From: a virus
DNA length: 45,946 nt
Virus record (IMG/VR): IMGVR_UViG_3300029682_000009
Coordinates: 1 to 45,946 of that record
Direction: 5' to 3' (one strand)
The position numbers were made by a program, and so were the translations under genes. This document shows positions 11,259-45,946 of this stretch, piece after piece. The first letter of the stretch is position 1. The number at the start of each line of letters is the position of its first letter. The notes under the pieces were generated by a model, which searched no databases, was not told where the DNA came from, and saw only the letters and a program-made list of their open reading frames with translations.

Positions 11259-12332
11259 TTAGATGCCGAGCATCGTGGCAACGAGGCTGGGACGACGAAT
11301 AACAGCGCCCCAAGTTCCGCCAACGACCTTTTGCTTGTAGCTTGACATTTCCGGAACCACACGACCCAAGAAATACTTCTCAGAGAATGCGCAGATACCA
11401 GTCTCAATGCCAAACAGGTCAGGAACAGTCATGTACAGCATTTCACCAGCCGTTGTAGTCAGCTCAGGAAGCTGAACAACCTCGATGTTGGGGAATGACT
11501 GCTTGAGCATAGTCATAGCCGTAAGACCGAAGGAGTTCGGCTCGGTCAGGTAAGGAGCTCTGGTGTTGCTGACAGCGAGAATGATGCGGGAGTTCTGATC
11601 AACCAAACCGCCGTTATTCTTGCTAATTTCAGCCCAAAGCTTGTTAATGTCGTTATAGACAATGTTGGCAGTCTTCTCAGGCTGTGCAGCGCACTTTGCT
11701 GTCCACGTAGAGTTAGCGGTAGATCCCGTGGTGATGGAGATCGGAGAAATCGAAGCGTTCAGGTTCGGGTCATTTAACAGACCGTAGACCTTCTTACCTT
11801 CGACACCATAAAGCGCAAACTTGTTGTGAGCCATCGCCATAACGTAGGCAGAGGCCTGTTGTTTAGAAGAAACAACATTCAACTTGGCCTTAGCCGCAAG
11901 ACCCACCTCACGATCACCATACTTGATGACAGTTTGGAACAAGAAGTTTTCGCGAGTCGGGTACTCCACGTTCACATCTGTAGAGACGTTCTCCGCGAAG
12001 TCAGAGTAAGGAGTCACATTGCCCGCATACTCTTCGACCGGGAAGGTGAAGAAGTTATCTGTCCAGTCACCCTTTCTTTCTTCGCCGAAAATCTTTGTAG
12101 CGTTCTGGGCGGCAAACAGGATGGGGACGACCTGCGGGTCAATGAATGTCGTGAAGACTGACGGGACGCCGACAGACACAGGAGTCTGCAATGCAGCATC
12201 TCGAGCCATTGCCTTAACCGTTGCATCGTAATCGACGTTGATCTTACCTTTGGCGTCTGTGGAATAGGACATGAATCCTTTTGCTTCCACACCATGCACG
12301 CCTTTTTGCTTTGCTAATTCAAAATCGTTCAT
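11259..12332 (-). CDS. Major capsid protein
   Basis: 357 aa, follows protease/scaffold and small decoration-like gene; followed by attenuator hairpin typical of abundant capsid genes. Confidence 0.75.
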   Translation of the reverse strand: MNDFELAKQKGVHGVEAKGFMSYSTDAKGKINVDYDATVKAMARDAALQTPVSVGVPSVFTTFIDPQVVPILFAAQNATKIFGEERKGDWTDNFFTFPVEEYAGNVTPYSDFAENVSTDVNVEYPTRENFLFQTVIKYGDREVGLAAKAKLNVVSSKQQASAYVMAMAHNKFALYGVEGKKVYGLLNDPNLNASISPISITTGSTANSTWTAKCAAQPEKTANIVYNDINKLWAEISKNNGGLVDQNSRIILAVSNTRAPYLTEPNSFGLTAMTMLKQSFPNIEVVQLPELTTTAGEMLYMTVPDLFGIETGICAFSEKYFLGRVVPEMSSYKQKVVGGTWGAVIRRPSLVATMLGI

Positions 12333-35318: not shown

Positions 35319-35610
35319 CATTGACTATGACAAATTGTCCAGCATGGTGGCAGATAAAGTCTCCAGCCAGATCGCTGAAAAGCTGATTCAGAAAACAACA
35401 AAGCTCACACTCTCTCGTCCAGAAGTAGAGGTTAGGATCGGTTTTGCTCCTGGCTCTTCTGCCGCCCGTGAAGTAATGAAGGATCCGAAGTTCCCTAAGC
35501 CTGACGCATTCTCCGAGAACGGGCGCGATCGTTGGTACACAAAAGACATTGACGATTACATGGAAAGCAAAAGACACGCCCGAGCCAAGCTCGCTATTTC
35601 AGCCGCTTAG
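35311..35610 (+). CDS. AlpA/Xis-like excisionase candidate
   Basis: LTLSRPEVEVRIGFAPGSSAAREVMKDPKFPKPDAFSENGRDRWYTKDIDDYM; converges on int with 17-nt tail overlap. Confidence 0.55.
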   Translation: MNDIDYDKLSSMVADKVSSQIAEKLIQKTTKLTLSRPEVEVRIGFAPGSSAAREVMKDPKFPKPDAFSENGRDRWYTKDIDDYMESKRHARAKLAISAA

Positions 35611-36670
35611 CAATTTCTTCTGCGCTCGCTCTGTAGTATCTCTGGAGCATCTTTAAATCTTTGTGCCCCGTTTGTCTAGCAAGCGCCAGGACATCTAAAC
35701 GGGGCGCCCCTGTTTCTGGATCAGGGCTGGCGGCCCAAGTCGCAAAAGTTGCGCGGCCGTCATGAAAATTCAGCCCTTCTTTGATTAGTCGGTTTTGAGA
35801 ATCATATTCAGGTCCAAGGCCGGCTCTATCCCGAACTTTTCGGAATAACGTATCTCTGTTGTGATCGTTAAGTCCGCCAAAAATCCGTGGTTCATACTCG
35901 AGCTCCATAACTAATTTAAGAATTTCCCGAGCTCTTGCAGACAAGGCCACGTCTCTTCTTGACAATGTTTTTGTAGCCTCCGCCGGCACATGTAGCACAT
36001 TGTCACCTAACCAAGAATATTCAATCTTTAAAAGCTCCCCTGCTCGCATTCCTGTTTGACAACTAAAAAGGAAGGCTGCTACCGCAAGTTGCATTTTGTT
36101 CTTTGGCACTGTGTGGCCGTCCCAACCGCTAGCCTGCAAAAGTTTCTCTATATCCTCGTCTGAAGCAACTCTCTCGCGGTGCTCTGGCTCCCGTGGTTTC
36201 TCCACACCCCGGCAAGGATTCACATCTGTGAGTTCGTTTTTAATAGCAAATTGAAAAACGTCAGAGAGAATTGTCAGCTCTCTATTAACAGTGGACGGTG
36301 AAATATAGTTGTCTCGGTTTTTGGCACGTTCGCTGAGGCGACGTTCAATGTAGTTCTCAATCGTTCTGTTTGTAAAAGAAGATAGAGTTTTAGCCGCCAG
36401 TTTATCTCTCTGGAGGCGTCTCAGTCGGATTTCTTCTGTACGTTTGGAGCGTTTCTGTGAAGTGACTTCGCTGATGTATTCGTCAATCAGCGCGGCCAGA
36501 GTAATCGAAGAAGAGCGTTCTTCGGCGCTAATGTCCAACTCTGCCGCAAAGCGTTTTGCCTCAGCTCGAGTTTTAAATGTTTTGGAGAATCGCTGTTTGT
36601 TTCCGTCCGCCTGAAGTCTATAGCCATAAACTTCATACGTACCGCAGAGAGTTTTTCTTATTCCTGCCAT
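35594..36670 (-). CDS. int: Tyrosine integrase
   Basis: Start set at MAGIRKTLCGTYEVYGYRL (ATG 36670); C-terminal HDGRATFATW ... GHKDLKMLQRYY catalytic pattern. Confidence 0.85.
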   Translation of the reverse strand: MAGIRKTLCGTYEVYGYRLQADGNKQRFSKTFKTRAEAKRFAAELDISAEERSSSITLAALIDEYISEVTSQKRSKRTEEIRLRRLQRDKLAAKTLSSFTNRTIENYIERRLSERAKNRDNYISPSTVNRELTILSDVFQFAIKNELTDVNPCRGVEKPREPEHRERVASDEDIEKLLQASGWDGHTVPKNKMQLAVAAFLFSCQTGMRAGELLKIEYSWLGDNVLHVPAEATKTLSRRDVALSARAREILKLVMELEYEPRIFGGLNDHNRDTLFRKVRDRAGLGPEYDSQNRLIKEGLNFHDGRATFATWAASPDPETGAPRLDVLALARQTGHKDLKMLQRYYRASAEEIAKRLK

Positions 36671-36684
36671 ATCCGCCTCGAGAA

Positions 36685-36716
36685 TTTCCGTTAGCGTTTC
36701 CGTTAAATTTCCGTTA
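36685..36716 (+). repeat. Three direct TTTCCGTTA repeats (arm-type Int-binding site candidates)
   Basis: 36685..36693, 36697..36705, 36708..36716, spaced 11-12 bp, just upstream of int. Confidence 0.65.
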
Positions 36717-36803
36717 TCTAAACCTGAATATAACGAGATATGCCAAAACGGACAACAAAAAATCCCGTAAAACCGAGGCTTAACGGGATATGACAAGTAT
36801 GTC

Positions 36804-36890
36804 TGGTGCCCGGGACTGGACTCGAACCAGCACGCCCGCGAAGGCGCTAGCACCTGAAGCTAGTGCGTCTACCAATTTCGCCACCCGGGC
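36804..36890 (-). tRNA. tRNA-Leu (anticodon CAG), complete, CCA encoded
   Basis: GCCCGGGTGGCGAAATTGGTAGACGCACTAGCTTCAGGTGCTAGCGCCTTCGCGGGCGTGCTGGTTCGAGTCCAGTCCCGGGCACCA: 7-bp acceptor stem, CTAGC/GCTAG anticodon stem, loop TTCAGGT, long variable arm, TTCGAGT T-loop. Confidence 0.9.
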
Positions 36891-37889: not shown

Positions 37890-38129
37890 TTACTTGCTAC
37901 TGTAGCGCTTTTCGACAGTATTCAATAGGTCCTCGAACCTCTTGCAGTAATCGTCGACACTCTGCTCCCAACTCAAGACATCGAACTGTGTCTCGATCGG
38001 CAGCGCTCTTGGCTCTTTTTTCAAGACTGGTGATGCGGGAGCGCAAGCGGTCAGAGTCAGCGCGAGCGTTAGATTCAGCAGCACGCATCTCGGCGAGAGC
38101 GATAGCCTGATTTTTGTATTGTGTCTCAT
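37890..38129 (-). CDS. o-spanin (outer-membrane lipoprotein, overlapped in i-spanin frame +1)
   Basis: Start set at MRHNTKIRLSLSPRCVLLNLTLALTLTAC lipobox; lies within and 7 nt beyond the i-spanin gene. Confidence 0.65.
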   Translation of the reverse strand: MRHNTKIRLSLSPRCVLLNLTLALTLTACAPASPVLKKEPRALPIETQFDVLSWEQSVDDYCKRFEDLLNTVEKRYSSK

Positions 38130-38277
38130 AATTTTTGACCGTAGCTGTGAGTTCTGAGATTTGAGCTTGAGCAATTTTCAACTGCTCAGAATTCTGACCA
38201 TTGTGAAGGCCAAAAAAATAAGCGCCAGCAACTATCAAAGCGCCGGCGCCTATCTTTACCAATTCAAAAGGATTCAT
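37897..38277 (-). CDS. i-spanin
   Basis: N-terminal TM IGAGALIVAGAYFFGL followed by coiled coil; after endolysin. Confidence 0.7.
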   Translation of the reverse strand: MNPFELVKIGAGALIVAGAYFFGLHNGQNSEQLKIAQAQISELTATVKNYETQYKNQAIALAEMRAAESNARADSDRLRSRITSLEKRAKSAADRDTVRCLELGAECRRLLQEVRGPIEYCRKALQ

Positions 38278-38774
38278 CCCATCAATTTCACCTCGTCCTC
38301 ACGTCTATTCATGAGACCCGGAAGGATTTCGTACATCTGTTTCCCGTTTTCATCCTTAACCAGATTCCCGTTCCTATCCCTGATTTTCTTTTTTGCAAAA
38401 GATCGAAATCCTTCTTTTGCCAACTCGAGTTTTCCGGAATTCAAATATCCGAGTGTCTTAGATTTAGCAACTGCGCTCACTCCCAGGTTAAATGCCAAAT
38501 CTAATAATGCGATGTACTGTCCTTCAGTCAGTTTGCAAGTAACGTAAGGGGCAAGTCCCTCGGCGTGCTCGATCAAATCATCGCGAATCAGCTTTTCGGC
38601 CTCTTGTCTGGTGATAATTTGACCAGATTTAACCCCTTTTGTGTGTCCATAGCCGATAGTGAGAGTGCCTCCCGGACAACGGTAGGCCTTCAATCGCAGA
38701 CCCTCCCACTTCTTAACAAAATCCTCTGCGATGAGAGGGTTCCATTGAGAAAACGCTAATTTTTCCTCATTCAT
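38274..38774 (-). CDS. Endolysin, GH24 (T4/lambda lysozyme-like)
   Basis: VKKWEGLRLKAYRCPGGTLTIGYGHTKGV motif. Confidence 0.85.
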   Translation of the reverse strand: MNEEKLAFSQWNPLIAEDFVKKWEGLRLKAYRCPGGTLTIGYGHTKGVKSGQIITRQEAEKLIRDDLIEHAEGLAPYVTCKLTEGQYIALLDLAFNLGVSAVAKSKTLGYLNSGKLELAKEGFRSFAKKKIRDRNGNLVKDENGKQMYEILPGLMNRREDEVKLMG

Positions 38775-39252
38775 TTTGATTCCCTCCTAAATGAACCTTT
38801 CCTTTGATGCGTTTTTCGTGTTCAGTTTGAACGGTCTCCAACATTTCTCTGATTCTGTGGGGAATAATTTGACCGAACCCCGCTTTCTCAACGTTTTCAA
38901 GAATTGAGATCAATTCATTCAGAGAAAGAGCACCAATTGCCCACGCCCCGATCCATGGTTCATTGAATATCTGATCCACTCCATGAAACCCAATAGCAAC
39001 TAAGAGGATGATGAATTTCCGGATCAACCCTTTGAGTCCGACACGGCTCGACCAAGTTCCGGTTCTGGCAGCGGCTACGATCCCGCTCAGATAGTCGAAG
39101 ACAACAAAGCCAAACAACCAGTAGAAAAGGTTTTGATGCTCCCCCATGAGACTGCTTATGAGGGAAGTAAAACATCCAGCAATGGTTAAAAAGAAACTCT
39201 TGAGAACGCCGGAATCAAAACTGTTAAGACGGCTTAAAAATTGATCCCACAT
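38767..39252 (-). CDS. Holin (multi-TM, holin_4-like recall)
   Basis: 161 aa with several TM segments, 8-nt overlap with endolysin start. Confidence 0.65.
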   Translation of the reverse strand: MWDQFLSRLNSFDSGVLKSFFLTIAGCFTSLISSLMGEHQNLFYWLFGFVVFDYLSGIVAAARTGTWSSRVGLKGLIRKFIILLVAIGFHGVDQIFNEPWIGAWAIGALSLNELISILENVEKAGFGQIIPHRIREMLETVQTEHEKRIKGKVHLGGNQNE

Positions 39253-39310
39253 CTCTCAATCTCCCTATGTCGTCGATTTAGTAGATGCATGTTTCCTCCG
39301 ATATTTAGAT

Positions 39311-39340
39311 AAAAAAAGAAAGCCCCTCAAGTCGAGGGGC
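39311..39340 (-). terminator. Strong rho-independent terminator closing the structural operon
   Basis: Minus strand GCCCCTC-GACTT-GAGGGGC-TTTCTTTTTTT, directly after paralog 6 stop. Confidence 0.8.
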
Positions 39341-39347
39341 GGAGTGT

Positions 39348-39734
39348 TTAAGAAGCCGTTGCTCCAATGGAAGGAACAAAAAAGATTGTGGTTCCCTCAG
39401 TTTGATTAGTGCTTGCAGTAATTTGATAACCTAAAGTGCCACCTTTATTTACTGGAATATAGACAGCTGGCCATTGCAACAGGCTGGATTCGTTTGTTTG
39501 GATGCGAGAATGAACGGACGCTTGAATCGCTATAACGAGTATTCCGTTTCCGCCGGTAATGCAAAAATATCCGCTCGTGGGAGCTGTGTAGTTCCCCGTA
39601 AAACTTCCCATTGCATTTTCTTTTACAACGATTCGTCTATACCACCCATCTGGCATTACCTGGCCAACAATGAAATCTAAATCCGTTTTCTTAAAAAACT
39701 TAGAGAGGAGGAGCGTAAACAATGATTTCAGCAT
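39348..39734 (-). CDS. MLK-leader family paralog 6
   Basis: MLKSLFTLLLSKFFKK...APTSGYFCITG...IPVNKGGTLGY...IFFVPSIGATAS; GGAGG RBS. Confidence 0.65.
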   Translation of the reverse strand: MLKSLFTLLLSKFFKKTDLDFIVGQVMPDGWYRRIVVKENAMGSFTGNYTAPTSGYFCITGGNGILVIAIQASVHSRIQTNESSLLQWPAVYIPVNKGGTLGYQITASTNQTEGTTIFFVPSIGATAS

Positions 39735-40543
39735 GACGCACCTCCTAAACCCACCTCACGTTTGACTGACAAACGGGATGAAGTGAAGGATCGAATACTG
39801 TCCTCGGTTATCTGCTCTTGCCTTGAAAGAAACCGTTTGGCCTCTATTAACCTGCACTGTAAAACCTTGGTAAATTCCAGTGCCTGACTGATCGAGATTA
39901 AATCTCGCACCAGAGGCGATGACTTCCAAGTAACAAGCTCCTGACGAACAAGATTGCCCAAGCACAAGCAAACCGTCCGCTGGTGGAGTGTAAGTATGCA
40001 AGTTATTATCGTTTGGAAGCGAAAGCTCGACAGTGTTTGAGGGGGCCGTGTTACGCTGTTGAGCGACCCACTCCTTCTTACTAACAAGGAACTTCTCCGC
40101 AAAGAGCTGTACCAAGTTTTTAAGCATAGGCCACCTCCTTGCAGAAGAGCGTTCTTAAGAGATTGCCCCCCCCCGCCGATGGTTTTAGTAAACCAGCATT
40201 CAATGTTTTTAGCTTGTCTAGCGCATAACGTAAAGACTTGCCCTTTGGCTACCGGACAGGCGCACAAAAGAATGTCTCCCACAACTTGCGGAGTTGTAAA
40301 GACGTTTATGTTCGTTGTTTGGGCTGAGGCAATGCAAGTGGCAGTGTCTGCCGTAAACCTTATGCACGCGAAGCCATCAGTTGGGGCAACTCCGTTGAAA
40401 ACAGAACTCCATCCGTCAATAACCGTAGTTGTCGGAGTAAGTATCACGTTGTTGGTTGAAGGCATTGCCTGATGTCCTACAAGCTCGGATTCCTGTTTGC
40501 TGTAGAACCTGCTCAGCAGGAGGCTCAGAATGTTTTTCAGCAT
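39728..40543 (-). CDS. MLK-leader family paralog 4, as assembled read through a G9 tract into the +1 frame of paralog 5
   Basis: MLKNILSLLLSRFYSK...APTDGFACIRF...CPVAKGQVFTL...CWFTKTIGGGG then R/S/L-rich extension; family-like part is about 40175..40543. Confidence 0.55.
   Translation of the reverse strand: MLKNILSLLLSRFYSKQESELVGHQAMPSTNNVILTPTTTVIDGWSSVFNGVAPTDGFACIRFTADTATCIASAQTTNINVFTTPQVVGDILLCACPVAKGQVFTLCARQAKNIECWFTKTIGGGGQSLKNALLQGGGLCLKTWYSSLRRSSLLVRRSGSLNSVTRPPQTLSSFRFQTIITCILTLHQRTVCLCLGNLVRQELVTWKSSPLVRDLISISQALEFTKVLQCRLIEAKRFLSRQEQITEDSIRSFTSSRLSVKREVGLGGASC
39756..40127 (-). CDS. MLK-leader family paralog 5
   Basis: MLKNLVQLFAEKFLVSKK...PPADGLLVLGQ...VQVNRGQTVSF...LHFIPFVSQT; AAGGAGG RBS. 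Confidence 0.65.
   Translation of the reverse strand: MLKNLVQLFAEKFLVSKKEWVAQQRNTAPSNTVELSLPNDNNLHTYTPPADGLLVLGQSCSSGACYLEVIASGARFNLDQSGTGIYQGFTVQVNRGQTVSFKARADNRGQYSILHFIPFVSQT
40166..40174 (-). repeat. G9 homopolymer (coding strand) at C-terminus of paralog 4
   Basis: + strand gattg-ccccccccc-gccgatggtttt. Confidence 0.95.
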
Positions 40544-41334
40544 AATGCGCCTCCTGTTTGGAGGTTATTTAGACGATTCGTTGCGAACAAAAGTAAGGTT
40601 CCCCGAACCCGAGTAGACGCCAAGATCCGCAATGATTGTGTCACCCTTCTGTATCGGGATCGAGGCCCATTTCCACCCACTAGTGACGTTAGTGAGATAG
40701 CTAACCTTTCTTGTGGAGTTTTCAAGTCTGAACCACTTATTGGCGACGTCATTAGCCCCTCCAATCTGAAACACGGCCCAACCACTAAATGGGGCAATGA
40801 TATCTTGTTGACCTCCTCCCTGAACGTTTTGGTTCTGTACTGTTGTACCCGGCCCACATTGGTAAGCAATGTCAGGATACTTGCTTTTGAGAAAACTTTC
40901 GGCGAAAAGTTGAACGAGGGCTTTAAGCATGACAGAACCCTCCGAACAAATATATTATACCCCCCCCCGATGGTTTTCACTAATCGGACGGTAATTTGCT
41001 CTAGGTATCGGCCATAAACAGAAAAGCGCTGCCCTTTTGAAACGGGCGTGAATAAATTCAGGATTTCACCTCCCGGATTAGATGTCCCTGTAGTCGTAAT
41101 TTGCAACGCCTGAGTATTTATCTGGAAAAATCCTTTATCGGATGTAGTACGACCCACGGCCCAAATATAACCATCTGATACCGCGGTTGAATTAGATAAA
41201 ACCGGTCCCCAGTTGTCTACTGAAGCTGAAGGGTTGTAGTCTACAGGTACTGCCGAGCCGGGCTTAGAAGCGTGTCCCGCCTGTGCTGGTGTCGTTCGGC
41301 TATCGAGTAGCCGCTGAATAAGTTGTTTTAGCAT
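40537..41334 (-). CDS. MLK-leader family paralog 2, as assembled read through a G9 tract into the +1 frame of paralog 3
   Basis: MLKQLIQRLLDS...AVSDGYIWAVG...TPVSKGQRFSVY...VRLVKTIGGG then junk-like extension; family-like part is about 40960..41334. Confidence 0.55.
   Translation of the reverse strand: MLKQLIQRLLDSRTTPAQAGHASKPGSAVPVDYNPSASVDNWGPVLSNSTAVSDGYIWAVGRTTSDKGFFQINTQALQITTTGTSNPGGEILNLFTPVSKGQRFSVYGRYLEQITVRLVKTIGGGYNIFVRRVLSCLKPSFNFSPKVFSKASILTLLTNVGRVQQYRTKTFREEVNKISLPHLVVGPCFRLEGLMTSPISGSDLKTPQERLAISLTSLVGGNGPRSRYRRVTQSLRILASTRVRGTLLLFATNRLNNLQTGGALC
40565..40930 (-). CDS. MLK-leader family paralog 3
   Basis: MLKALVQLFAESFLKSK...APFSGWAVFQIG...IPIQKGDTIIA...LTFVRNESSK; GGAGGG RBS. 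Confidence 0.65.
   Translation of the reverse strand: MLKALVQLFAESFLKSKYPDIAYQCGPGTTVQNQNVQGGGQQDIIAPFSGWAVFQIGGANDVANKWFRLENSTRKVSYLTNVTSGWKWASIPIQKGDTIIADLGVYSGSGNLTFVRNESSK
40960..40968 (-). repeat. G9 homopolymer (coding strand) at C-terminus of paralog 2
   Basis: + strand tatattata-ccccccccc-gatggtttt. Confidence 0.95.
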
Positions 41335-41369
41335 TTAAGCTCCTTGCCGAGCCTAAATGCTCGGCGTTA

Positions 41370-41769
41370 TTAGATTGGGCAGAAATAGCAATAAACCATT
41401 CCGGCACTCATGCCATAGTGGTATTCAACTTGCTGTCCTTTTCTGATGTACATGTATGCTCCAAGATTGGAGCCAGGTAGTTGGAGTCTTGTTAGGGTCG
41501 GCCAATAATCTTGGTTTTTATTGCGGACACCAACAAATATCGCTTGCGTTGCATAAATCCAGGCAACCCCGTCTGCTGGAGCGACATAAATAAAAGCGTC
41601 TGTGCCCGTAGCTGTATGGACCAAGATATTTCCTGAAATGAAATCAGAAATGCCTATCTCTGACGACCTTTTCCCATATATAGTTAAACTACCCCCCCCC
41701 ACAGCCGCCGCTCACTGATCTGCGAGGAACGAATAAGCTACACAACAGACTTGCTAATTGTTTAAACAT
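41370..41769 (-). CDS. MLK-leader family paralog 1, interrupted at a G9 tract (phase-OFF as assembled)
   Basis: Leader MFKQLASLLCSLFVPRRSVSGGCGGG stops at TAG 41689..41691; body SLTIYGKRSS...APADGVAWIYA...IRKGQQVEY...VYCYFCPI open in the adjacent frame to 41370. Confidence 0.6.
41692..41700 (-). repeat. G9 homopolymer (coding strand) 23 codons into paralog 1
   Basis: + strand aacta-ccccccccc-acagccgccg. Confidence 0.95.
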
Positions 41770-42376
41770 TGAAAAAACCTCCTTGTCTCATAGAGTTGCG
41801 GGCATCAACTGCCTGCTCCAATTCGTAGGCCAAAGCTTCCGGAAATGCCGGATAGTCGATAAAAGGAAAGCTAGGCTTGTCCGGAAGATCTTTAAGTGCT
41901 TGGCGATAATTCAATAACGCCTGTCGATCTTCTTCAGTTAATTGAGCTCTCTTCGCCTTGGCGGCTGACTGCACAGTAATGTCCGGGAGCTGAACATACT
42001 TATCAGTGTCAGAGATTCGAGCATTGCGCTCTCCTCTAACTTCTTGTTCGTAACGCTCTTGGACAAATTTGTCATCCAGTTCAGGAAGTTCTGTTGAAAG
42101 GTAGTAATTACCGTCAGCACTGTGGAAATAGCCTTGAGGACTGGGCTCAAGCTTCCAATATTTGATGATTACTCCATCATCTCGCTTAAATCTTTCGGAT
42201 AGCTTGTAATGGCTCTCTGCGTACGCCTCATCTTTGGGATCTGTAAACGCGTGCTGACTCGGTGCATTGGAGGAAACAACAATTCTTCCGTCCGAGTCCT
42301 TCAGTGAGTATTTTGCCAGCGGCTGGCTCATTGCCTTGGCAAGCATTTCCTGCCTAACTTGTTCTAAGGTCTTCAT
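41762..42376 (-). CDS. Tail fibre assembly/chaperone protein
   Basis: 204 aa; C-terminal DRQALLNYRQALKDLPDKPSFPFIDYPAFPE resembles Tfa-type motif; follows fibre genes. Confidence 0.6.
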   Translation of the reverse strand: MKTLEQVRQEMLAKAMSQPLAKYSLKDSDGRIVVSSNAPSQHAFTDPKDEAYAESHYKLSERFKRDDGVIIKYWKLEPSPQGYFHSADGNYYLSTELPELDDKFVQERYEQEVRGERNARISDTDKYVQLPDITVQSAAKAKRAQLTEEDRQALLNYRQALKDLPDKPSFPFIDYPAFPEALAYELEQAVDARNSMRQGGFFNV

Positions 42377-42396
42377 TGTTTATCCTTCGGAATTGT

Positions 42397-43404
42397 TTAA
42401 TTTGTCGATGGTGTTTCTGACTCAGCAGAGTTTTTGGCATCATCAATTTCTTGCTGGGTACCACCGTTTTCAAGGATCAGTTCTTCGAGAATCGGACACA
42501 GGTAGTCATCAACGTGACCATTGAAATAAGTTTCAGCCCAAGATTCCGCACCGGCTGTAAAGTTGATATTCGACCGCGCAGTGGTCTGTTGCGTCTCTGT
42601 AAGGGCTTGAGCCGCCTCGTATGAGACACTCGGCGTTAAATCCGTGTAGTCCGCAGATAAAAGAGCTGTCCCGGCAGATGTGTCCACAGACGCAATCGTG
42701 AACATTCTTCCATCTGTTCCGACTACGGTGTCACCAGCTTTAATGTTGCCTTGAGGCTTCAAATCCGAGATTTGAATAGTGGCCGAAACTTGGAGCGCTT
42801 GATTGATTACTCTGACAGCATAGGCACTTGCCGCCGCCTCTAAAGCTTTCGCTTCCGCAGTCTGCGCAGCAGTCTGGGCGGTTGTTGCCGCCGTTTGTGC
42901 GGTTTCAGCATTGCTCTGGGCCGTTTCTGCTGCCTGTTGCGCCGCCTGAGCAGTTTGCAGAGATTGGGCCGCATTGTTAGCCGCTGTTTGGGCACTAGCA
43001 GCTGAACCTTGAGCGGCAGTCTGAGCCGCTGAAGCCGAAGTTTGTGCCGAGTTCGCCGTTGTAACTGCCACCGTGGAAGCATCGACCGCACTCTTAGATT
43101 GAGCAATAGCAGTCTGTATATCTGCATCCCAATCGTCGACTACTTGCTTCAAAGTCTCAACTTTTTCATTTGCAGCATTCGCTTCCGCTAATGCATTCGA
43201 AGAAGTTGAATTTGCTGTCTGTGCTGTTTGCCGAGCTTCCTTAGCGATCGATAGAGCTTCTTCGGAATTGTCAGAGGCTTGGTCTGCGTACGCGCCAACA
43301 TCGTTAATGGCGTCTTCCGTCTGCTGAAGAACTTCGGGGCCGCTGATAACTCCGGTTCCTGTCGGCGTGTAATGAAATTGGAATTTCGAATCTGCCATGA
43401 TCAA
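42397..43404 (-). CDS. Tail fibre protein with Ala/Gln-rich coiled-coil shaft
   Basis: 335 aa; AQTSASAAQTAAQGSAASAQTAANNAAQSLQTAQAAQQAAETAQSNAETAQTAATTAQTAAQTAEAKA low-complexity repeats. Confidence 0.65.
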   Translation of the reverse strand: MIMADSKFQFHYTPTGTGVISGPEVLQQTEDAINDVGAYADQASDNSEEALSIAKEARQTAQTANSTSSNALAEANAANEKVETLKQVVDDWDADIQTAIAQSKSAVDASTVAVTTANSAQTSASAAQTAAQGSAASAQTAANNAAQSLQTAQAAQQAAETAQSNAETAQTAATTAQTAAQTAEAKALEAAASAYAVRVINQALQVSATIQISDLKPQGNIKAGDTVVGTDGRMFTIASVDTSAGTALLSADYTDLTPSVSYEAAQALTETQQTTARSNINFTAGAESWAETYFNGHVDDYLCPILEELILENGGTQQEIDDAKNSAESETPSTN

Positions 43405-44448
43405 TTACTCCGGCAAGCGCAAGAAATAAGCGAGCGTGTAAAAAGGCGGCTCATTGGTAACGCCTGTGATCTTTGCGTTAGCTGTTAAGGTGTGCGTGTG
43501 CGTTTGACTTCCACCAGTAGAACCGATACTCAATCCATGCTGATGAGAGCCGTTAGAAGATGTTTCTCCCGTCCAAGTTCTGGACGCATCGATATTGAAA
43601 ACACCTCGACCATTTTGACGACCATCGGAGCATCCGGGATGATCGCCTACGTAAACAAGAGGACCGTTACCAATCACGCTCAACCAGTTGGCGGAAATTT
43701 GTCCGGTGATGTTCATTGAACCTCTTGTGTGGGTATGAGCACCTGCAGGAGATGTGCTACCTGAATGAGAATGTGCTGGCATCTGTGCGGCCGTCAGCGC
43801 AGTAGCACCAACTGTGCCGTTAACGGTCAAATCTGGAATCTCAATAGTTGAAGCACCGCCAGTTGTGCCCGAATCTTTTGGTAAAGAGCCTTTTATAAAT
43901 TTTCCAATCAAGTTTGGAGTTACACCATTCTTCCCGTCACTCTGGCCATCACAAAGGATCCAACCTTCGTCGGCTTGAGTAGTACCCCAAAAAACTGGGC
44001 GTCTCCCATCACTTCCACCTAATGTCACGTTATGAAACGGAACTACGGCGCCGGCTGGAACGGTAATGTCGATATTTTTCCAAACTGCTCTGTTAGTTCC
44101 AGGCGCCACCTTTGTGGTTGATGGTCCGTTGGCTTGGATGCAGCGGTACTTAGTCCCATTCTGCATAACCTCGTTCCCAACTTCGTAGTCCAAGAGAGCG
44201 GAATAATTCATAATCCCGCCCTGTTGATACCACAGCAAAAATTGAGAAAGCAAGAAAAAGACGCCATTGAAGTCCGATTTAAACGGAGGAATGCCGCCTT
44301 GTTCGATGGGAATAGCATTTTCTCGTCCCCAACCTATTTGCTGAGAGAGTCGTCCTAAACCAGCTTCTTCTGAAGTTAACGGAGGAATGGTAATTTCTCC
44401 GTCCTGGGCGATAGCCGCGCTTAATTGATACTTTGGATAATTACTCAT
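43405..44448 (-). CDS. Tail fibre / tail-collar domain protein
   Basis: GWILCDGQSDGKNGVTPNLIGKFIKGS collar-type motif; MPAHSHSGSTSPAGAHTHT and GSHQHG..QTHTHT His-x-His repeats. Confidence 0.7.
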   Translation of the reverse strand: MSNYPKYQLSAAIAQDGEITIPPLTSEEAGLGRLSQQIGWGRENAIPIEQGGIPPFKSDFNGVFFLLSQFLLWYQQGGIMNYSALLDYEVGNEVMQNGTKYRCIQANGPSTTKVAPGTNRAVWKNIDITVPAGAVVPFHNVTLGGSDGRRPVFWGTTQADEGWILCDGQSDGKNGVTPNLIGKFIKGSLPKDSGTTGGASTIEIPDLTVNGTVGATALTAAQMPAHSHSGSTSPAGAHTHTRGSMNITGQISANWLSVIGNGPLVYVGDHPGCSDGRQNGRGVFNIDASRTWTGETSSNGSHQHGLSIGSTGGSQTHTHTLTANAKITGVTNEPPFYTLAYFLRLPE

Positions 44449-45074
44449 ATCTCAATGACCTTTGAGGGATTGAAGACACCTTGATTAAAGGGCAATAAAT
44501 TGGATCCGAAGAATCCGAATACCAGATTGTTTGGAACGACCGTCTCCACATTTGCCAAAACCCCAGCAGGCCTGTTTAACAATCCGTAGTTTTGCAAAAT
44601 GGCGATTTGGACAGCAGAGGGATCTCCAACAATGCGAATCGTTATCGTCATATCCTGGTAGTCGGTGACAAATGCCGGCAGGCCTATCAACCGAGTAAGC
44701 AAAGAATTAATGGTTTCAGCCGTAGAGTTCGAGACGTTTACGACGGCTCGATAAAAAATCAGGAACCGGAAAAACTCATCATCCAGCCGAGTGTCCTGAC
44801 CGTCAACAACGAGGTTACGATTCACGCCTACGCGCTTCCCCCACCAATCCAGCCAAACCCCGGAGGCTGTATCAGGGTTCAATATGAAATTAAAAAACGC
44901 GTCCAGTTGAGGAGACGCGTCTATTTCGGCATTGAAAAGTAATCCTAATTGTCTGTATCGCTCTGAGTGCGAATACTGCGACTGGAGCGCTATAGAAATA
45001 AGCGATCGGACATTTGAGAGTTTTCTGAAATCCTCAACACTCAGAATATTCCGCCAAGTTGCAGAATCTGCCAT
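44445..45074 (-). CDS. Baseplate/tail protein (DUF2612-like recall)
   Basis: 209 aa following J; GVWLDWWGKRVGVNRN motif. Confidence 0.55.
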   Translation of the reverse strand: MADSATWRNILSVEDFRKLSNVRSLISIALQSQYSHSERYRQLGLLFNAEIDASPQLDAFFNFILNPDTASGVWLDWWGKRVGVNRNLVVDGQDTRLDDEFFRFLIFYRAVVNVSNSTAETINSLLTRLIGLPAFVTDYQDMTITIRIVGDPSAVQIAILQNYGLLNRPAGVLANVETVVPNNLVFGFFGSNLLPFNQGVFNPSKVIEI

Positions 45075-45076
45075 CG

Positions 45077-45946
45077 TTAGCCTCCTGTTTGGAATACAAG
45101 AGAGACATCGGACTCTTGAATCGTGGGCTCCACATTCGCAGGAATCTGGACACTGGATCCGAAAGCTCCGGATCCCAGAGCTACTTGGATGGATGCAACC
45201 GGAACGGCTGTAGCTGACTGAATTGCGGCATAGAACCGAGACGCGTAGACAGTCGACGCCAAAGAAACGCGGTCATTCGCACCCTGTCCTAGAACATCAT
45301 TGATCACAGTCTGAATGACGTTGTTTTTCTCGGTTGGATTCATTGAAGTGGCAAAGAATTCGATCTTTACCTTCAAGGCTTGATTCTGCGGCCTGACAAT
45401 GTTGTAGACGTAGGTGGCGTTGTAGAACCTAGAATCTGTGTACGAAACCTGATAAGTTCCAGTAGTCCCGCACCCTGCGTCCTTTCGCTGATAGATCGTT
45501 TGAGCGATCTGCTCATCCTCTCCGCCAACGATAGCGACCAGAATGGAATGAGGATTGATGCTCACGCCAAATTGAGTGATGGCGGCATTCGTCGGATTCT
45601 CTAAAACTCTGACATCGAGAACGCCCTCTAACGCGGCCAAATTTGCCTCAATCGCTTCGACATACCCGGTGGCATTGACAGCATAGCTTTCAACCATTCG
45701 GTTTCTAAGTTCTGCGTCCGTCTCTTCATCTCGGCCGATGACGCCGGCGGACGGATTGTTAATGGTGTCCCATCCTGCAATCGTTGTGACGATCCTGTTC
45801 ACTGCTCCCGCCGCTACTTCTAACGGTCCGTGTTCGATTGCAGTAAATGTAGTAGTGACACTTCCTGTGTCTCCGATTCGTGCGCCTGCTGCCGCCGAAT
45901 GTCTGTACTGGTTGCCGAGAGAATCTTGAGCGATCGCACCATAGGG
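45077..45946 (-). CDS. Baseplate J-like protein, C-terminal part (continues from 1..444 through the overlap)
   Basis: Frame open from window end to stop at 45077; 45848..45946 duplicates 1..99. Confidence 0.8.
   Translation of the reverse strand, partial: PYGAIAQDSLGNQYRHSAAAGARIGDTGSVTTTFTAIEHGPLEVAAGAVNRIVTTIAGWDTINNPSAGVIGRDEETDAELRNRMVESYAVNATGYVEAIEANLAALEGVLDVRVLENPTNAAITQFGVSINPHSILVAIVGGEDEQIAQTIYQRKDAGCGTTGTYQVSYTDSRFYNATYVYNIVRPQNQALKVKIEFFATSMNPTEKNNVIQTVINDVLGQGANDRVSLASTVYASRFYAAIQSATAVPVASIQVALGSGAFGSSVQIPANVEPTIQESDVSLVFQTGG
45848..45946. repeat. Terminal overlap, identical to 1..99
   Basis: Direct comparison of the two ends. Confidence 0.95.

Follow-up and report, generated by a model that had tools for sequence, protein, structure and literature searches.

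Polyguanine tracts in a phage array of paralogous genes look like a three-way genetic switch for virus attachment

Introduction

The 45,946-nucleotide (nt) virus sequence IMGVR_UViG_3300029682_000009 from IMG/VR, which was analysed over its full length and is called the window below, carries on its − strand an array of six paralogous open reading frames (ORFs). These ORFs, P1 to P6, align with one another and encode ~120-130 amino acids (aa) each, and three runs of nine G lie among them. A first-pass annotation of the window had proposed that slippage at these runs stochastically changes which paralogs are produced. Are the runs indeed slipped-strand switches, and if so, what exactly do they switch? 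The best explanation that we can offer, and one that we consider probable without being sure of it, is that the array holds six alternative fibre-tip modules governed by polyguanine (polyG) slipped-strand switches of two kinds. One kind turns a single gene on or off, and the other selects among three termination points at the junction of two genes.

Results

Three equal tracts in one gene array

The tracts appear as runs of nine C on the + strand, that is, G9 on the coding − strand (Table 1), and their coordinates, common length and strand are exactly as first described. The first-pass annotation had also put every other G or C run at no more than about five or six; the longest that we found in the window is 5, while A/T runs reach 7-8. 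At a window GC content of 46.8%, an independent-base model predicts 0.154 G/C runs of at least 9 nt and gives a probability of 5e-4 for three or more, a value that ignores the clustering of the three tracts on one strand within 1.6 kb. Among the glycine codons of the long ORFs in the window, GGG is the rarest (14.5%), so the tracts go against codon bias. All three are confined to the six-ORF array, as had been claimed. Their placement inside three paralogs also holds, with a correction: tract 1 comes after codon 23 of P1, and tracts 2 and 3 stand at the extreme 3′ ends of P2 and P4. The two latter tracts do share the context AAAACCATCGG(C)-G9, encoding K-T-I-G-G-G.

Consequences of tract length in the window

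We translated the array in silico at tract lengths from G6 to G12. From the P1 start at 41769, G9, G10 and G12 lead to stubs of 26-28 aa, and G8 or G11 to a protein of 132-133 aa. Tract 1, alone among the three, is a simple ON/OFF switch of its own paralog, and the assembled G9 is the OFF state. OFF-state cassettes of this N-terminal type (41689-41769 in the window, and their counterparts in relatives) still encode a peptide of 23-29 aa that corresponds to the conserved N-terminal helix. Restart of P1 in the OFF state at a GTG at 41702 was considered and dropped, as this GTG is not conserved in other N-terminal tract contexts.

Tracts 2 and 3 follow the ...K-T-I-G of P2 (start 41334) and P4 (start 40543). 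At G7 or G10, a stop comes immediately (in P2 at GTA TAA), and P2 and P4 are 125-129 aa long. At G8 or G11, 11-14 aa are added up to a TAA that overlaps the ATG of P3 or P5 (ATGCTTAA). At the assembled G9, 140 further codons are read in the +1 frame across P3 or P5 as far as a TGA that overlaps the ATG of P4 or P6 (ATGCTGA). The window as assembled encodes a P1 stub, a 265-aa P2 ORF, a 271-aa P4 ORF and P6. Tracts 2 and 3 never truncate P2 or P4; each picks one of three termination points. They thereby vary the C-terminal tail of P2 and P4 and, presumably, also the translation of the next paralog, P3 or P5. The original idea of a paralog switch fits tract 1 as an ON/OFF device, whereas at tracts 2 and 3 it has to be replaced by a choice among stops; the stop-free alternative frame across P3 and P5 had been missed altogether.

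Tracts in related genomes

Relatives were found through homologs of P6 and an alignment of the cassette type that follows a junction tract (Y, below). This yielded 89 loci from ENA, JGI, Logan and NCBI assemblies, and ten more (L090-L099) were fetched later; all tract lengths were read from consensus assemblies. The arrays consist of 3-7 small paralogous cassettes, ordered as an optional cassette with an N-terminal tract, one to three pairs made of an X cassette, a tract and a Y cassette, and a tract-free Z cassette. The 90 loci of the census (917 kb) contain 232 G/C runs of at least 7 nt, of which 231 are G on the coding strand, with lengths of G7 (21 tracts), G8 (36), G9 (157), G10 (14) and G11 (3). 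All but two or three of the 231 fall in arrays, one exception being a G7 in a flank resembling a transfer RNA (tRNA) in locus L001. Relatives therefore retain the tracts at homologous positions (~230 tracts in ~90 Sutterellaceae phage and prophage loci), a comparison that the first-pass annotation had named as a check. Outside the array of L077, a C9 at 11502-11510 is the only long C run seen on the opposite strand.

Length variation was assessed in pairs of loci at least 97% identical, covering 487 kb of alignment with 0.8% substitutions. PolyG tracts of at least 8 nt differ in length in 60 of 128 comparisons (~47%), against 3 of 1765 (0.17%) for A/T runs of 5-9 nt and none of 141 for G/C runs of 5-6 nt in the same pairs. 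The excess over control homopolymers that slippage had been expected to leave is thus present between genomes. One relative, L007, shares 97.8% identity with the window along 5 kb; within P2-P6 the two differ by insertions or deletions only at the tracts (G10 and G7 against G9 and G9), and its tract 1 is G8 against G9, in a more diverged segment with other gaps. All six cassettes of L007, P1 included, are in their canonical frame. Another relative, L011, is 99.2% identical to the window and shows a single gap, at tract 2 (G8).

An exact-sequence look-up in public assemblies recovered the window's own alleles in all three frame states. The P2 allele occurs in the long state (265 aa) in 36 contigs, in the short state in 16 (126 aa) and 6 (125 aa), and in the medium state (136 aa) in 16; for the P4 allele the figures are 8 long (271 aa), 27 and 26 short (129 and 128 aa) and 15 medium (140 aa). 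Together with the conserved tracts and their excess length variation, this is the part of the slippage proposal that stands. Among L001-L099, the cassettes that follow an identical P2-P3 pair vary from contig to contig, as does the assembly protein to which the pair is joined (204 against 251 aa), which indicates that cassettes are also shuffled by recombination, besides slippage.

Could the tracts, or their length differences, be homopolymer errors of sequencing or assembly? Such runs are error-prone on some platforms, and the data are consensus assemblies only. However, the tracts recur at homologous positions in ~90 loci from four sources (ENA, JGI, Logan and NCBI), they persist in spite of being written in the rarest glycine codon, the surrounding sequence is organised for frameshifts at precisely these points, and A/T runs on the same contigs vary by the 0.17% given above and not by 47%. 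We regard an artefact as hardly credible and discarded it on conservation, excess variability, junction design and allele states.

Four of the features that mark a contingency locus are found here. Coding-region homopolymers of at least ~7 nt are represented by three G9 tracts within ORFs and by ~230 equivalents in relatives. The tracts are kept despite synonymous options, since GGG makes up only 14.5% of glycine codons and they persist in at least 25 diverged cassette lineages. Their lengths are polymorphic above the background of insertions and deletions (60/128 against 3/1765, with single alleles in several lengths), and a change of length alters frame and product, as seen both in the translations at G6-G12 and in the states of the 231 tracts.

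In the assemblies, N-terminal-type tracts are OFF in 47 of 54 cases, and the 176 junction tracts are distributed over long (96), medium (42) and short (38) states. Because the long state is commonest, many genomes would express mainly the constitutive Z tip, with the alternatives on in subpopulations. A different account of these figures is that RNA polymerase stuttering or ribosomal slippage acts on a fixed G9 and yields a constant mix of short, medium and long products, DNA length differences being secondary noise. G9 is indeed strongly modal (157/231), a run of nine spans the RNA:DNA hybrid, and insertions or deletions in messenger RNA (mRNA) would decode the three-frame architecture equally well. 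Yet it is the DNA itself that differs in ~47% of near-identical comparisons, the same alleles occur in three states, and G7, G8, G10 and G11 are all maintained; moreover, the known bacterial transcriptional slippage sites are mostly A/T runs. The tracts contain no canonical X XXY YYZ heptamer and the alternative-frame peptide is unconstrained (below), so that a programmed ribosomal frameshift finds no footing. We consider slippage on a fixed tract rather unlikely as the main account, though slippage at the DNA and mRNA levels may coexist.

Three stops and a frame kept open

Each of the 173 evaluable C-terminal tracts (173/173) gives exactly one short, one medium and one long outcome. Across 139 unique junctions the short stop lies 0-13 nt past the tract. 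Counted from the A of the Y ATG, the medium stop begins at a distance of 5 nt (109 junctions) or 8 nt (13 junctions); between the long stop and the A of the following ATG, the distance is 4 nt in 125 of 133 junctions, the stop again coming second. Y cassettes start with ATGCTTAAR, which the +1 frame passes and at which the +2 frame stops; X and Z cassettes start with ATGCTGAAA, ATGCTAAAA or ATGTTAAAA, at which the +1 frame stops.

Between the tract and the long stop, the +1 frame runs through the whole Y cassette. Neither P3 (0/121 codons) nor P5 (0/123) has a stop in this frame, as against 4-20 in each of the other four paralogs and nine neighbouring genes and a background of 5% per codon in the shifted frame of all long ORFs of the window. 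In the relatives, 106 of 109 unique Y cassettes are free of +1-frame stops, compared with 3-14 stops in each of 114 X cassettes. The 109 Y cassettes form 25 clusters at 50% aa identity, with pairwise identities down to 24-30%, and resampling of their synonymous codons predicts 3.8 stops and a probability of 1.65% per cassette of having none. A tract-less Y ortholog located directly after the assembly-protein gene (L048-L051, 6001-6372; a single lineage) has one +1-frame stop, and its ortholog behind a G9 tract (L053/L054, 6001-6372) has none.

An open frame of this length might simply be a gene: the 265-271-aa products would then be functional proteins, and P3 and P5 would share their DNA with a second, overprinted domain. 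In favour of this, assemblies show the long state most often (96/176), about one third of the best cluster representatives of the family are 244-278 aa long, and the frame is stop-free. Substitution patterns contradict this. Comparison of Y orthologs gives aa identities of 0.884 (frame 0), 0.710 (+1 frame) and 0.703 (the stop-filled +2 frame); frame 0 is thus under purifying selection, and the +1 frame is no better preserved than the +2 frame. Third codon positions of Y cassettes, which are second positions of the +1 frame, vary freely, with the same excess of third-position substitutions as in X cassettes. Furthermore, the extensions are rich in Arg, Ser and Leu, as is usual for out-of-frame sequence, and the family profile matches only residues 1 to ~125. 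An overprinted domain was rejected on these substitution patterns and frame identities and appears to us very improbable. The +1 frame is selected for openness and not as a protein.

Cassette proteins, their probable role and host

The six paralogs match no Pfam or PHROG family, and neither blastn of the module nor tblastn of P6 gave a match in 50,697 GenBank phage records. An AlphaFold2 model of P6 (predicted local distance difference test 78, predicted template-modelling score 0.67) consists of N-terminal helices (residues 2-25), a floppy linker and an eight-strand β-sandwich. Foldseek matches to this model have template-modelling (TM) scores of 0.3-0.5 and include CBM35, C1q-like heads, the receptor-binding domain of Clostridium perfringens enterotoxin and a haemagglutinin head; the best viral match comes from an uncultured myovirus ('C1q-like protein').

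An exhaustive profile search brought the family to 1430 cluster representatives with a bimodal length distribution (~110-145 and ~244-278 aa). The longer class corresponds to the 'long' ORFs, in which the domain is limited to residues 1 to ~125. The cassette domain also forms the extreme C-terminus of proteins of 345-905 aa, and several of these fusions match at their N-termini PF24243 or tail-fibre PHROGs, including those of the window's own fibre. In two giant proteins, P0164 (2903 aa) and P0175 (1526 aa), the domain occurs eight times. Gene position, predicted fold and fusion to tail-fibre proteins lead us to read the cassettes as fibre-tip modules: they are most likely free-standing and dock through the conserved N-terminal helix, and they are probably receptor-binding modules.

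The cassettes could instead be cargo that the prophage expresses, for instance factors for exclusion or surface modification, with the tracts varying the phenotype of the lysogen and not the virion. The interval between tail genes and lysis cassette is a common cargo site, the family lacks Pfam and PHROG matches, and copies are seen mostly as prophages. Against this, the stop codon of the assembly-protein gene overlaps the P1 ATG, as read from the sequence, which makes the array part of the late tail operon; in other phages, tail-fibre proteins carry the domain fused to their C-termini; no signal peptide or lipobox is evident in the cassettes; and no promoter rises above chance level. We judge the cargo explanation improbable and retain that of fibre-tip modules.

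A scan of genome contigs with the P6 alignment gave no match, and one with the Y-cassette alignment gave two prophage loci, one belonging to Parasutterella excrementihominis YIT 11859 and the other to an uncultured Sutterella metagenome-assembled genome. The NCBI names of cassette-family members agree with a Sutterellaceae host. By these matches the phage is a temperate phage of Parasutterella (Sutterellaceae).

A proposed mechanism and its difficulties

Each cassette would combine a conserved N-terminal helix with a variable β-sandwich, and DNA slippage would set the lengths of the tracts, polyG tracts being hypermutable slipped-strand sites. The N-terminal tract of P1 would act as a plain ON/OFF switch. 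At a junction tract of 3k+1 nt, translation would end 0-13 nt past the tract and leave X with a native-like C-terminus; at 3k+2, the stop would overlap the ATG of Y (P3 or P5), a geometry that suits termination-reinitiation. Y would be translated in both states, with coupling opening a hairpin that sequesters its Shine-Dalgarno (SD) sequence. At 3k, the state of the window, ribosomes would cross the whole of Y in the +1 frame to the ATG of the next cassette, so that Y would be bypassed or occluded and X would bear an arbitrary tail of ~140 aa and probably be inactive. Ribosomes would still be passed to the next cassette start, and each switch could therefore act without silencing the cassettes downstream. 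Such passage would require an uninterrupted ribosome track, and hence a +1 frame that is stop-free with an unconstrained peptide. Phage progeny would then differ, heritably and reversibly, in the fibre tips that they make, a putative form of bet-hedging. That the junction tract is a heritable three-way translational router, with the stop-free ORF kept purely as a ribosome track (a 'non-coding open reading frame'), is a tentative proposal, to which we give serious but somewhat less than even weight. If it is true, one hypermutable site would set the output of two genes, downstream switches would be independent, and the repertoire of fibre tips would be combinatorial.

Predicted RNA structure offers some hints of translational coupling. 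In the junctions with a 29-nt spacer, the Y SD sequence GGAGGG is predicted to pair with codons 3-5 of Y, so that the ATG comes to lie in the loop. In an alignment of 38 junctions, 91.8% of cells are paired, and compensatory changes are seen at two pairs (for example, G-C to U-A). A single consensus hairpin for all junctions was rejected, with at least two pairing registers and spacer classes of 29, 40-41 and 44 nt present; because several registers and classes occur, we take an SD-sequestering hairpin as no more than suggestive. The mean minimum free energy from -30 to +30 is -14.6 for Y starts and -16.3 for X starts, compared with -9.2 for other starts in the window, and the predicted probability that the SD region is unpaired is 0.21 for Y, 0.31 for X and 0.45 for control starts. 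These values, too, are no more than suggestive of coupling. At 40916-40968 (−) of the window, RNAfold pairs the polyG tract with CCCUC, the element that is otherwise the partner of the P3 SD sequence; access to this SD sequence might therefore also be tuned by tract length.

The open frame can be explained in another way, as a device against polarity: ribosomes translating through Y would protect the mRNA from decay or from Rho-dependent termination, and Y might start independently. In favour of this, 106 of 109 cassettes keep the frame open throughout Y although its peptide is unconstrained, the array is one unit ending in a terminator, and frameshift-induced Rho polarity is reportedly documented for the polyC tract of Neisseria siaD. 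But shielding alone would not call for the precise position of the long stop, which in 125 of 133 junctions lies 4 nt behind the next ATG, and the N-terminal OFF state leaves ~330 nt of P1 untranslated where no open frame has evolved. We consider anti-polarity unlikely as the reason for the open frame and continue to prefer a routing function.

Several observations weigh against our own interpretation as well. The same ~330 nt of P1, left untranslated with no compensating open frame, imply that avoiding untranslated mRNA is no universal requirement. Y cassettes carry strong SD sequences of their own, and bypass may therefore only lower, not silence, Y expression. Covariation in support of the SD hairpin is modest (the two compensatory pairs), and a second pairing register is present. 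G9 accounts for 68% of tracts and could be a preferred fixed length decoded by transcriptional or ribosomal slippage. A/T control runs of matched length (at least 8 nt) are few, with 10 comparisons. Finally, the fold matches are weak (TM 0.3-0.5), and the receptor-binding role is putative.

Array anatomy and gene neighbourhood

The window reads as a circularly permuted genome of a temperate phage with its structural genes on the − strand. From 45802 downward on this strand, the order is a baseplate J-like gene, a DUF2612 wedge gene, the genes for a 347-aa fibre and a 335-aa fibre protein, and a Phage_tail_APC assembly-protein gene, followed by P1-P6, an intrinsic terminator, and holin, lysozyme and spanin genes (Table 1). 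As the strong terminator stands directly 3′ of P6, the array closes the transcription unit before the holin gene. P2 may be uncoupled from the P1 switch by the GC-rich hairpin at 41346-41365, which separates the stop codon of P1 from the strong SD sequence of P2, AAGGAG.

Table 1. Coordinates of the fibre genes, cassettes, tracts and predicted signals of the array in the window
Feature	Position	Strand	Evidence or remark
Tail fibre protein, 347 aa, His-x-His motifs	43405..44448	−	PHROGs phrog_1800, 2097, 12796, 1396
Ala/Gln-rich coiled-coil fibre protein, 335 aa, without recognisable distal domain	42397..43404	−	Weak tail-fibre PHROGs; Pfam Alanine_zipper
Tail fibre assembly protein	41762..42376	−	PF16778 2e-11; phrog_4912 3e-33
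P1 N-terminal segment, 26-aa ORF ending at TAG right after tract 1, OFF	41689..41769	−	Translation
Tract 1 (G9)	41692..41700	−	ON/OFF tract of the N-terminal type, in the P1 linker that follows the conserved helix
P1 body (β-sandwich part); in frame with the N-terminal segment only at G8 or G11	41370..41702	−	
7-bp hairpin GCCGAGC-ATTTAG-GCTCGGC, between P1 and the P2 SD sequence AAGGAG	41346..41365	−	Read from sequence
P2, X-type cassette, domain up to tract	40969..41334	−	ORF as assembled extends to 40537, 265 aa
Tract 2 (G9)	40960..40968	−	Three-state junction tract, 3′ end of P2
Stop-free bypass frame of the G9 state	40537..40959	−	TGA starts 4 nt after A of P4 ATG
Predicted hairpin, P3 SD sequence GGAGGG with P3 codons 4-5 (GCC CTC), ATG in loop	40916..40943	−	
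P3, Y-type cassette	40565..40930	−	Frame 0 under purifying selection; +1 frame 0 stops/121 codons
P4, X-type cassette, domain up to tract	40175..40543	−	ORF as assembled extends to 39728, 271 aa
Tract 3 (G9)	40166..40174	−	Three-state junction tract, 3′ end of P4
Second stop-free bypass frame	39728..40165	−	TGA starts 4 nt after A of P6 ATG
P5, Y-type cassette	39756..40127	−	+1 frame 0 stops/123 codons
P6, Z-type terminal cassette, without tract	39348..39734	−	7 stops in +1 frame; AlphaFold2 model
Intrinsic terminator, GCCCCTCGACTTGAGGGGC then T-run	39322..39340	−	Closes array, upstream of holin gene

Further features were noted around the array. Among the lysis genes at 37890-38277 (−), a 126-aa Rz-like ORF (37897-38277) encloses, in a different frame, a 94-aa ORF (37890-38174), whose lipobox-like ...LTLTAC suggests that it is Rz1, making up an embedded spanin pair. 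A tRNA-Leu(CAG) gene at 36804-36890 overlaps the 5′ end of a 419-aa integrase ORF (35594-36853), and the attachment site probably lies in this region. Four relatives (L001, L002, L004 and L006) have a short ORF that matches PF13597 (NRDD) immediately behind their lysis genes, and in L001 a tRNA-like sequence with a G7 run lies further downstream of it. One lineage (L001-L003, 1-3339) encodes a 2894-aa MuF_C/PBECR5 protein a few genes upstream of the array.

Discussion

The junction arrangement looks like an undescribed three-way genetic switch for virus attachment. In the literature we found no description of tracts in Parasutterella or Sutterella phages or of such arrays in Sutterellaceae phages, nor of junction tracts with three outcomes or of a whole-gene frame conserved just for lacking stops. 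Selection for a frame without selection for its peptide would make the Y cassettes a clean natural case of selection on ribosome traffic instead of protein sequence, in a family of 1430 cluster representatives whose 265-271-aa 'long' ORFs gene callers now annotate as proteins. The arrays would also offer a testable handle on host-range bet-hedging in gut phages, and a compact logic open to reuse in synthetic biology.

Other ways of varying phage tips were compared with the array. Like the G segment of Mu, the C segment of P1 and the R64 shufflon, it has alternative tip or adhesin cassettes after a constant fibre part and an assembly protein, and it would make a stochastic, heritable and reversible choice that putatively serves host-range bet-hedging. 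Unlike these invertible systems, its cassettes lie on one strand and are chosen by reading frame, not by inversion. No suitable inverted repeats were found in or around the array (an invertase gene was not searched for); those at the array are only 18-23 nt long and 74-83% complementary, consistent with chance. Direct repeats of more than 26 nt, as in a diversity-generating retroelement, are absent from 38700-45946 (a reverse transcriptase was not searched for in the rest of the window). For want of suitable repeats in and around the array, we ruled out both an invertible segment and a diversity-generating retroelement.

The translational side has its own parallels. As in termination-reinitiation at AUGA or UGAUG overlaps, or at the MS2 lysis gene, stops stand a few nt from the next AUG and the SD sequence lies in local structure; in ordinary cases, however, there is no hypermutable tract that picks among three overlaps and no bypass ORF that spans a gene without coding constraint. 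The programmed −1 frameshift of tail assembly chaperones (G/GT of lambda) likewise gives two products from overlapping frames in a tail operon. In the window there is no slippery heptamer, the extension is unconserved, and the frame is fixed in the DNA and differs between genomes.

With the contingency loci of Neisseria, Haemophilus and Campylobacter, the tracts share a hypermutable coding homopolymer, length polymorphism between strains and frame-dependent expression, and the modal tract length in C. jejuni is reportedly also G9. Classical loci have two functional states, since both wrong frames reach early stops, whereas the window junctions have three built-in stops and one tract governs two adjacent genes. 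In phages, contingency loci have been reported for T2 and T4, with homopolymer repeats under-represented in tail-fibre genes (Gomez, Barrick & Waters 2025, bioRxiv 10.1101/2025.10.21.683753). Homopolymer slippage in phage genes is proposed as bet-hedging there too, but the T2/T4 runs are of at least 6 nt and fall in many gene classes, unlike the long G runs described here, which are almost confined to the fibre-tip array.

By analogy, the closest precedent is the receptor-binding genes of Campylobacter Fletchervirus phages with their polyG tracts of G7-G11 (Sorensen 2021, Cell Rep 35:109214, as summarised in PMC11868660 and bioRxiv 10.1101/2025.10.21.683753). Homology is not what links the two, as neither blastn/tblastn (50,697 GenBank phage records) nor PHROG relates the cassettes to Campylobacter phage proteins. 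As far as those summaries go, both have tracts of G7-G11 with a similar modal length on the coding strand of host-recognition genes (putatively so in the window), and in both a change of length shifts the frame and is thought to give phenotypically mixed progeny. Fletchervirus is virulent, whereas the phage of the window is apparently temperate and infects a different host phylum. Its tracts are spread over arrays of 3-7 paralogous tip cassettes and, in place of the ON/OFF switching of one gene summarised for Fletchervirus, lie mostly at junctions with three outcomes and a stop-free bypass frame. PolyG phase variation of host recognition would extend beyond Campylobacter phages and take in temperate phages that infect a common commensal of the human gut.

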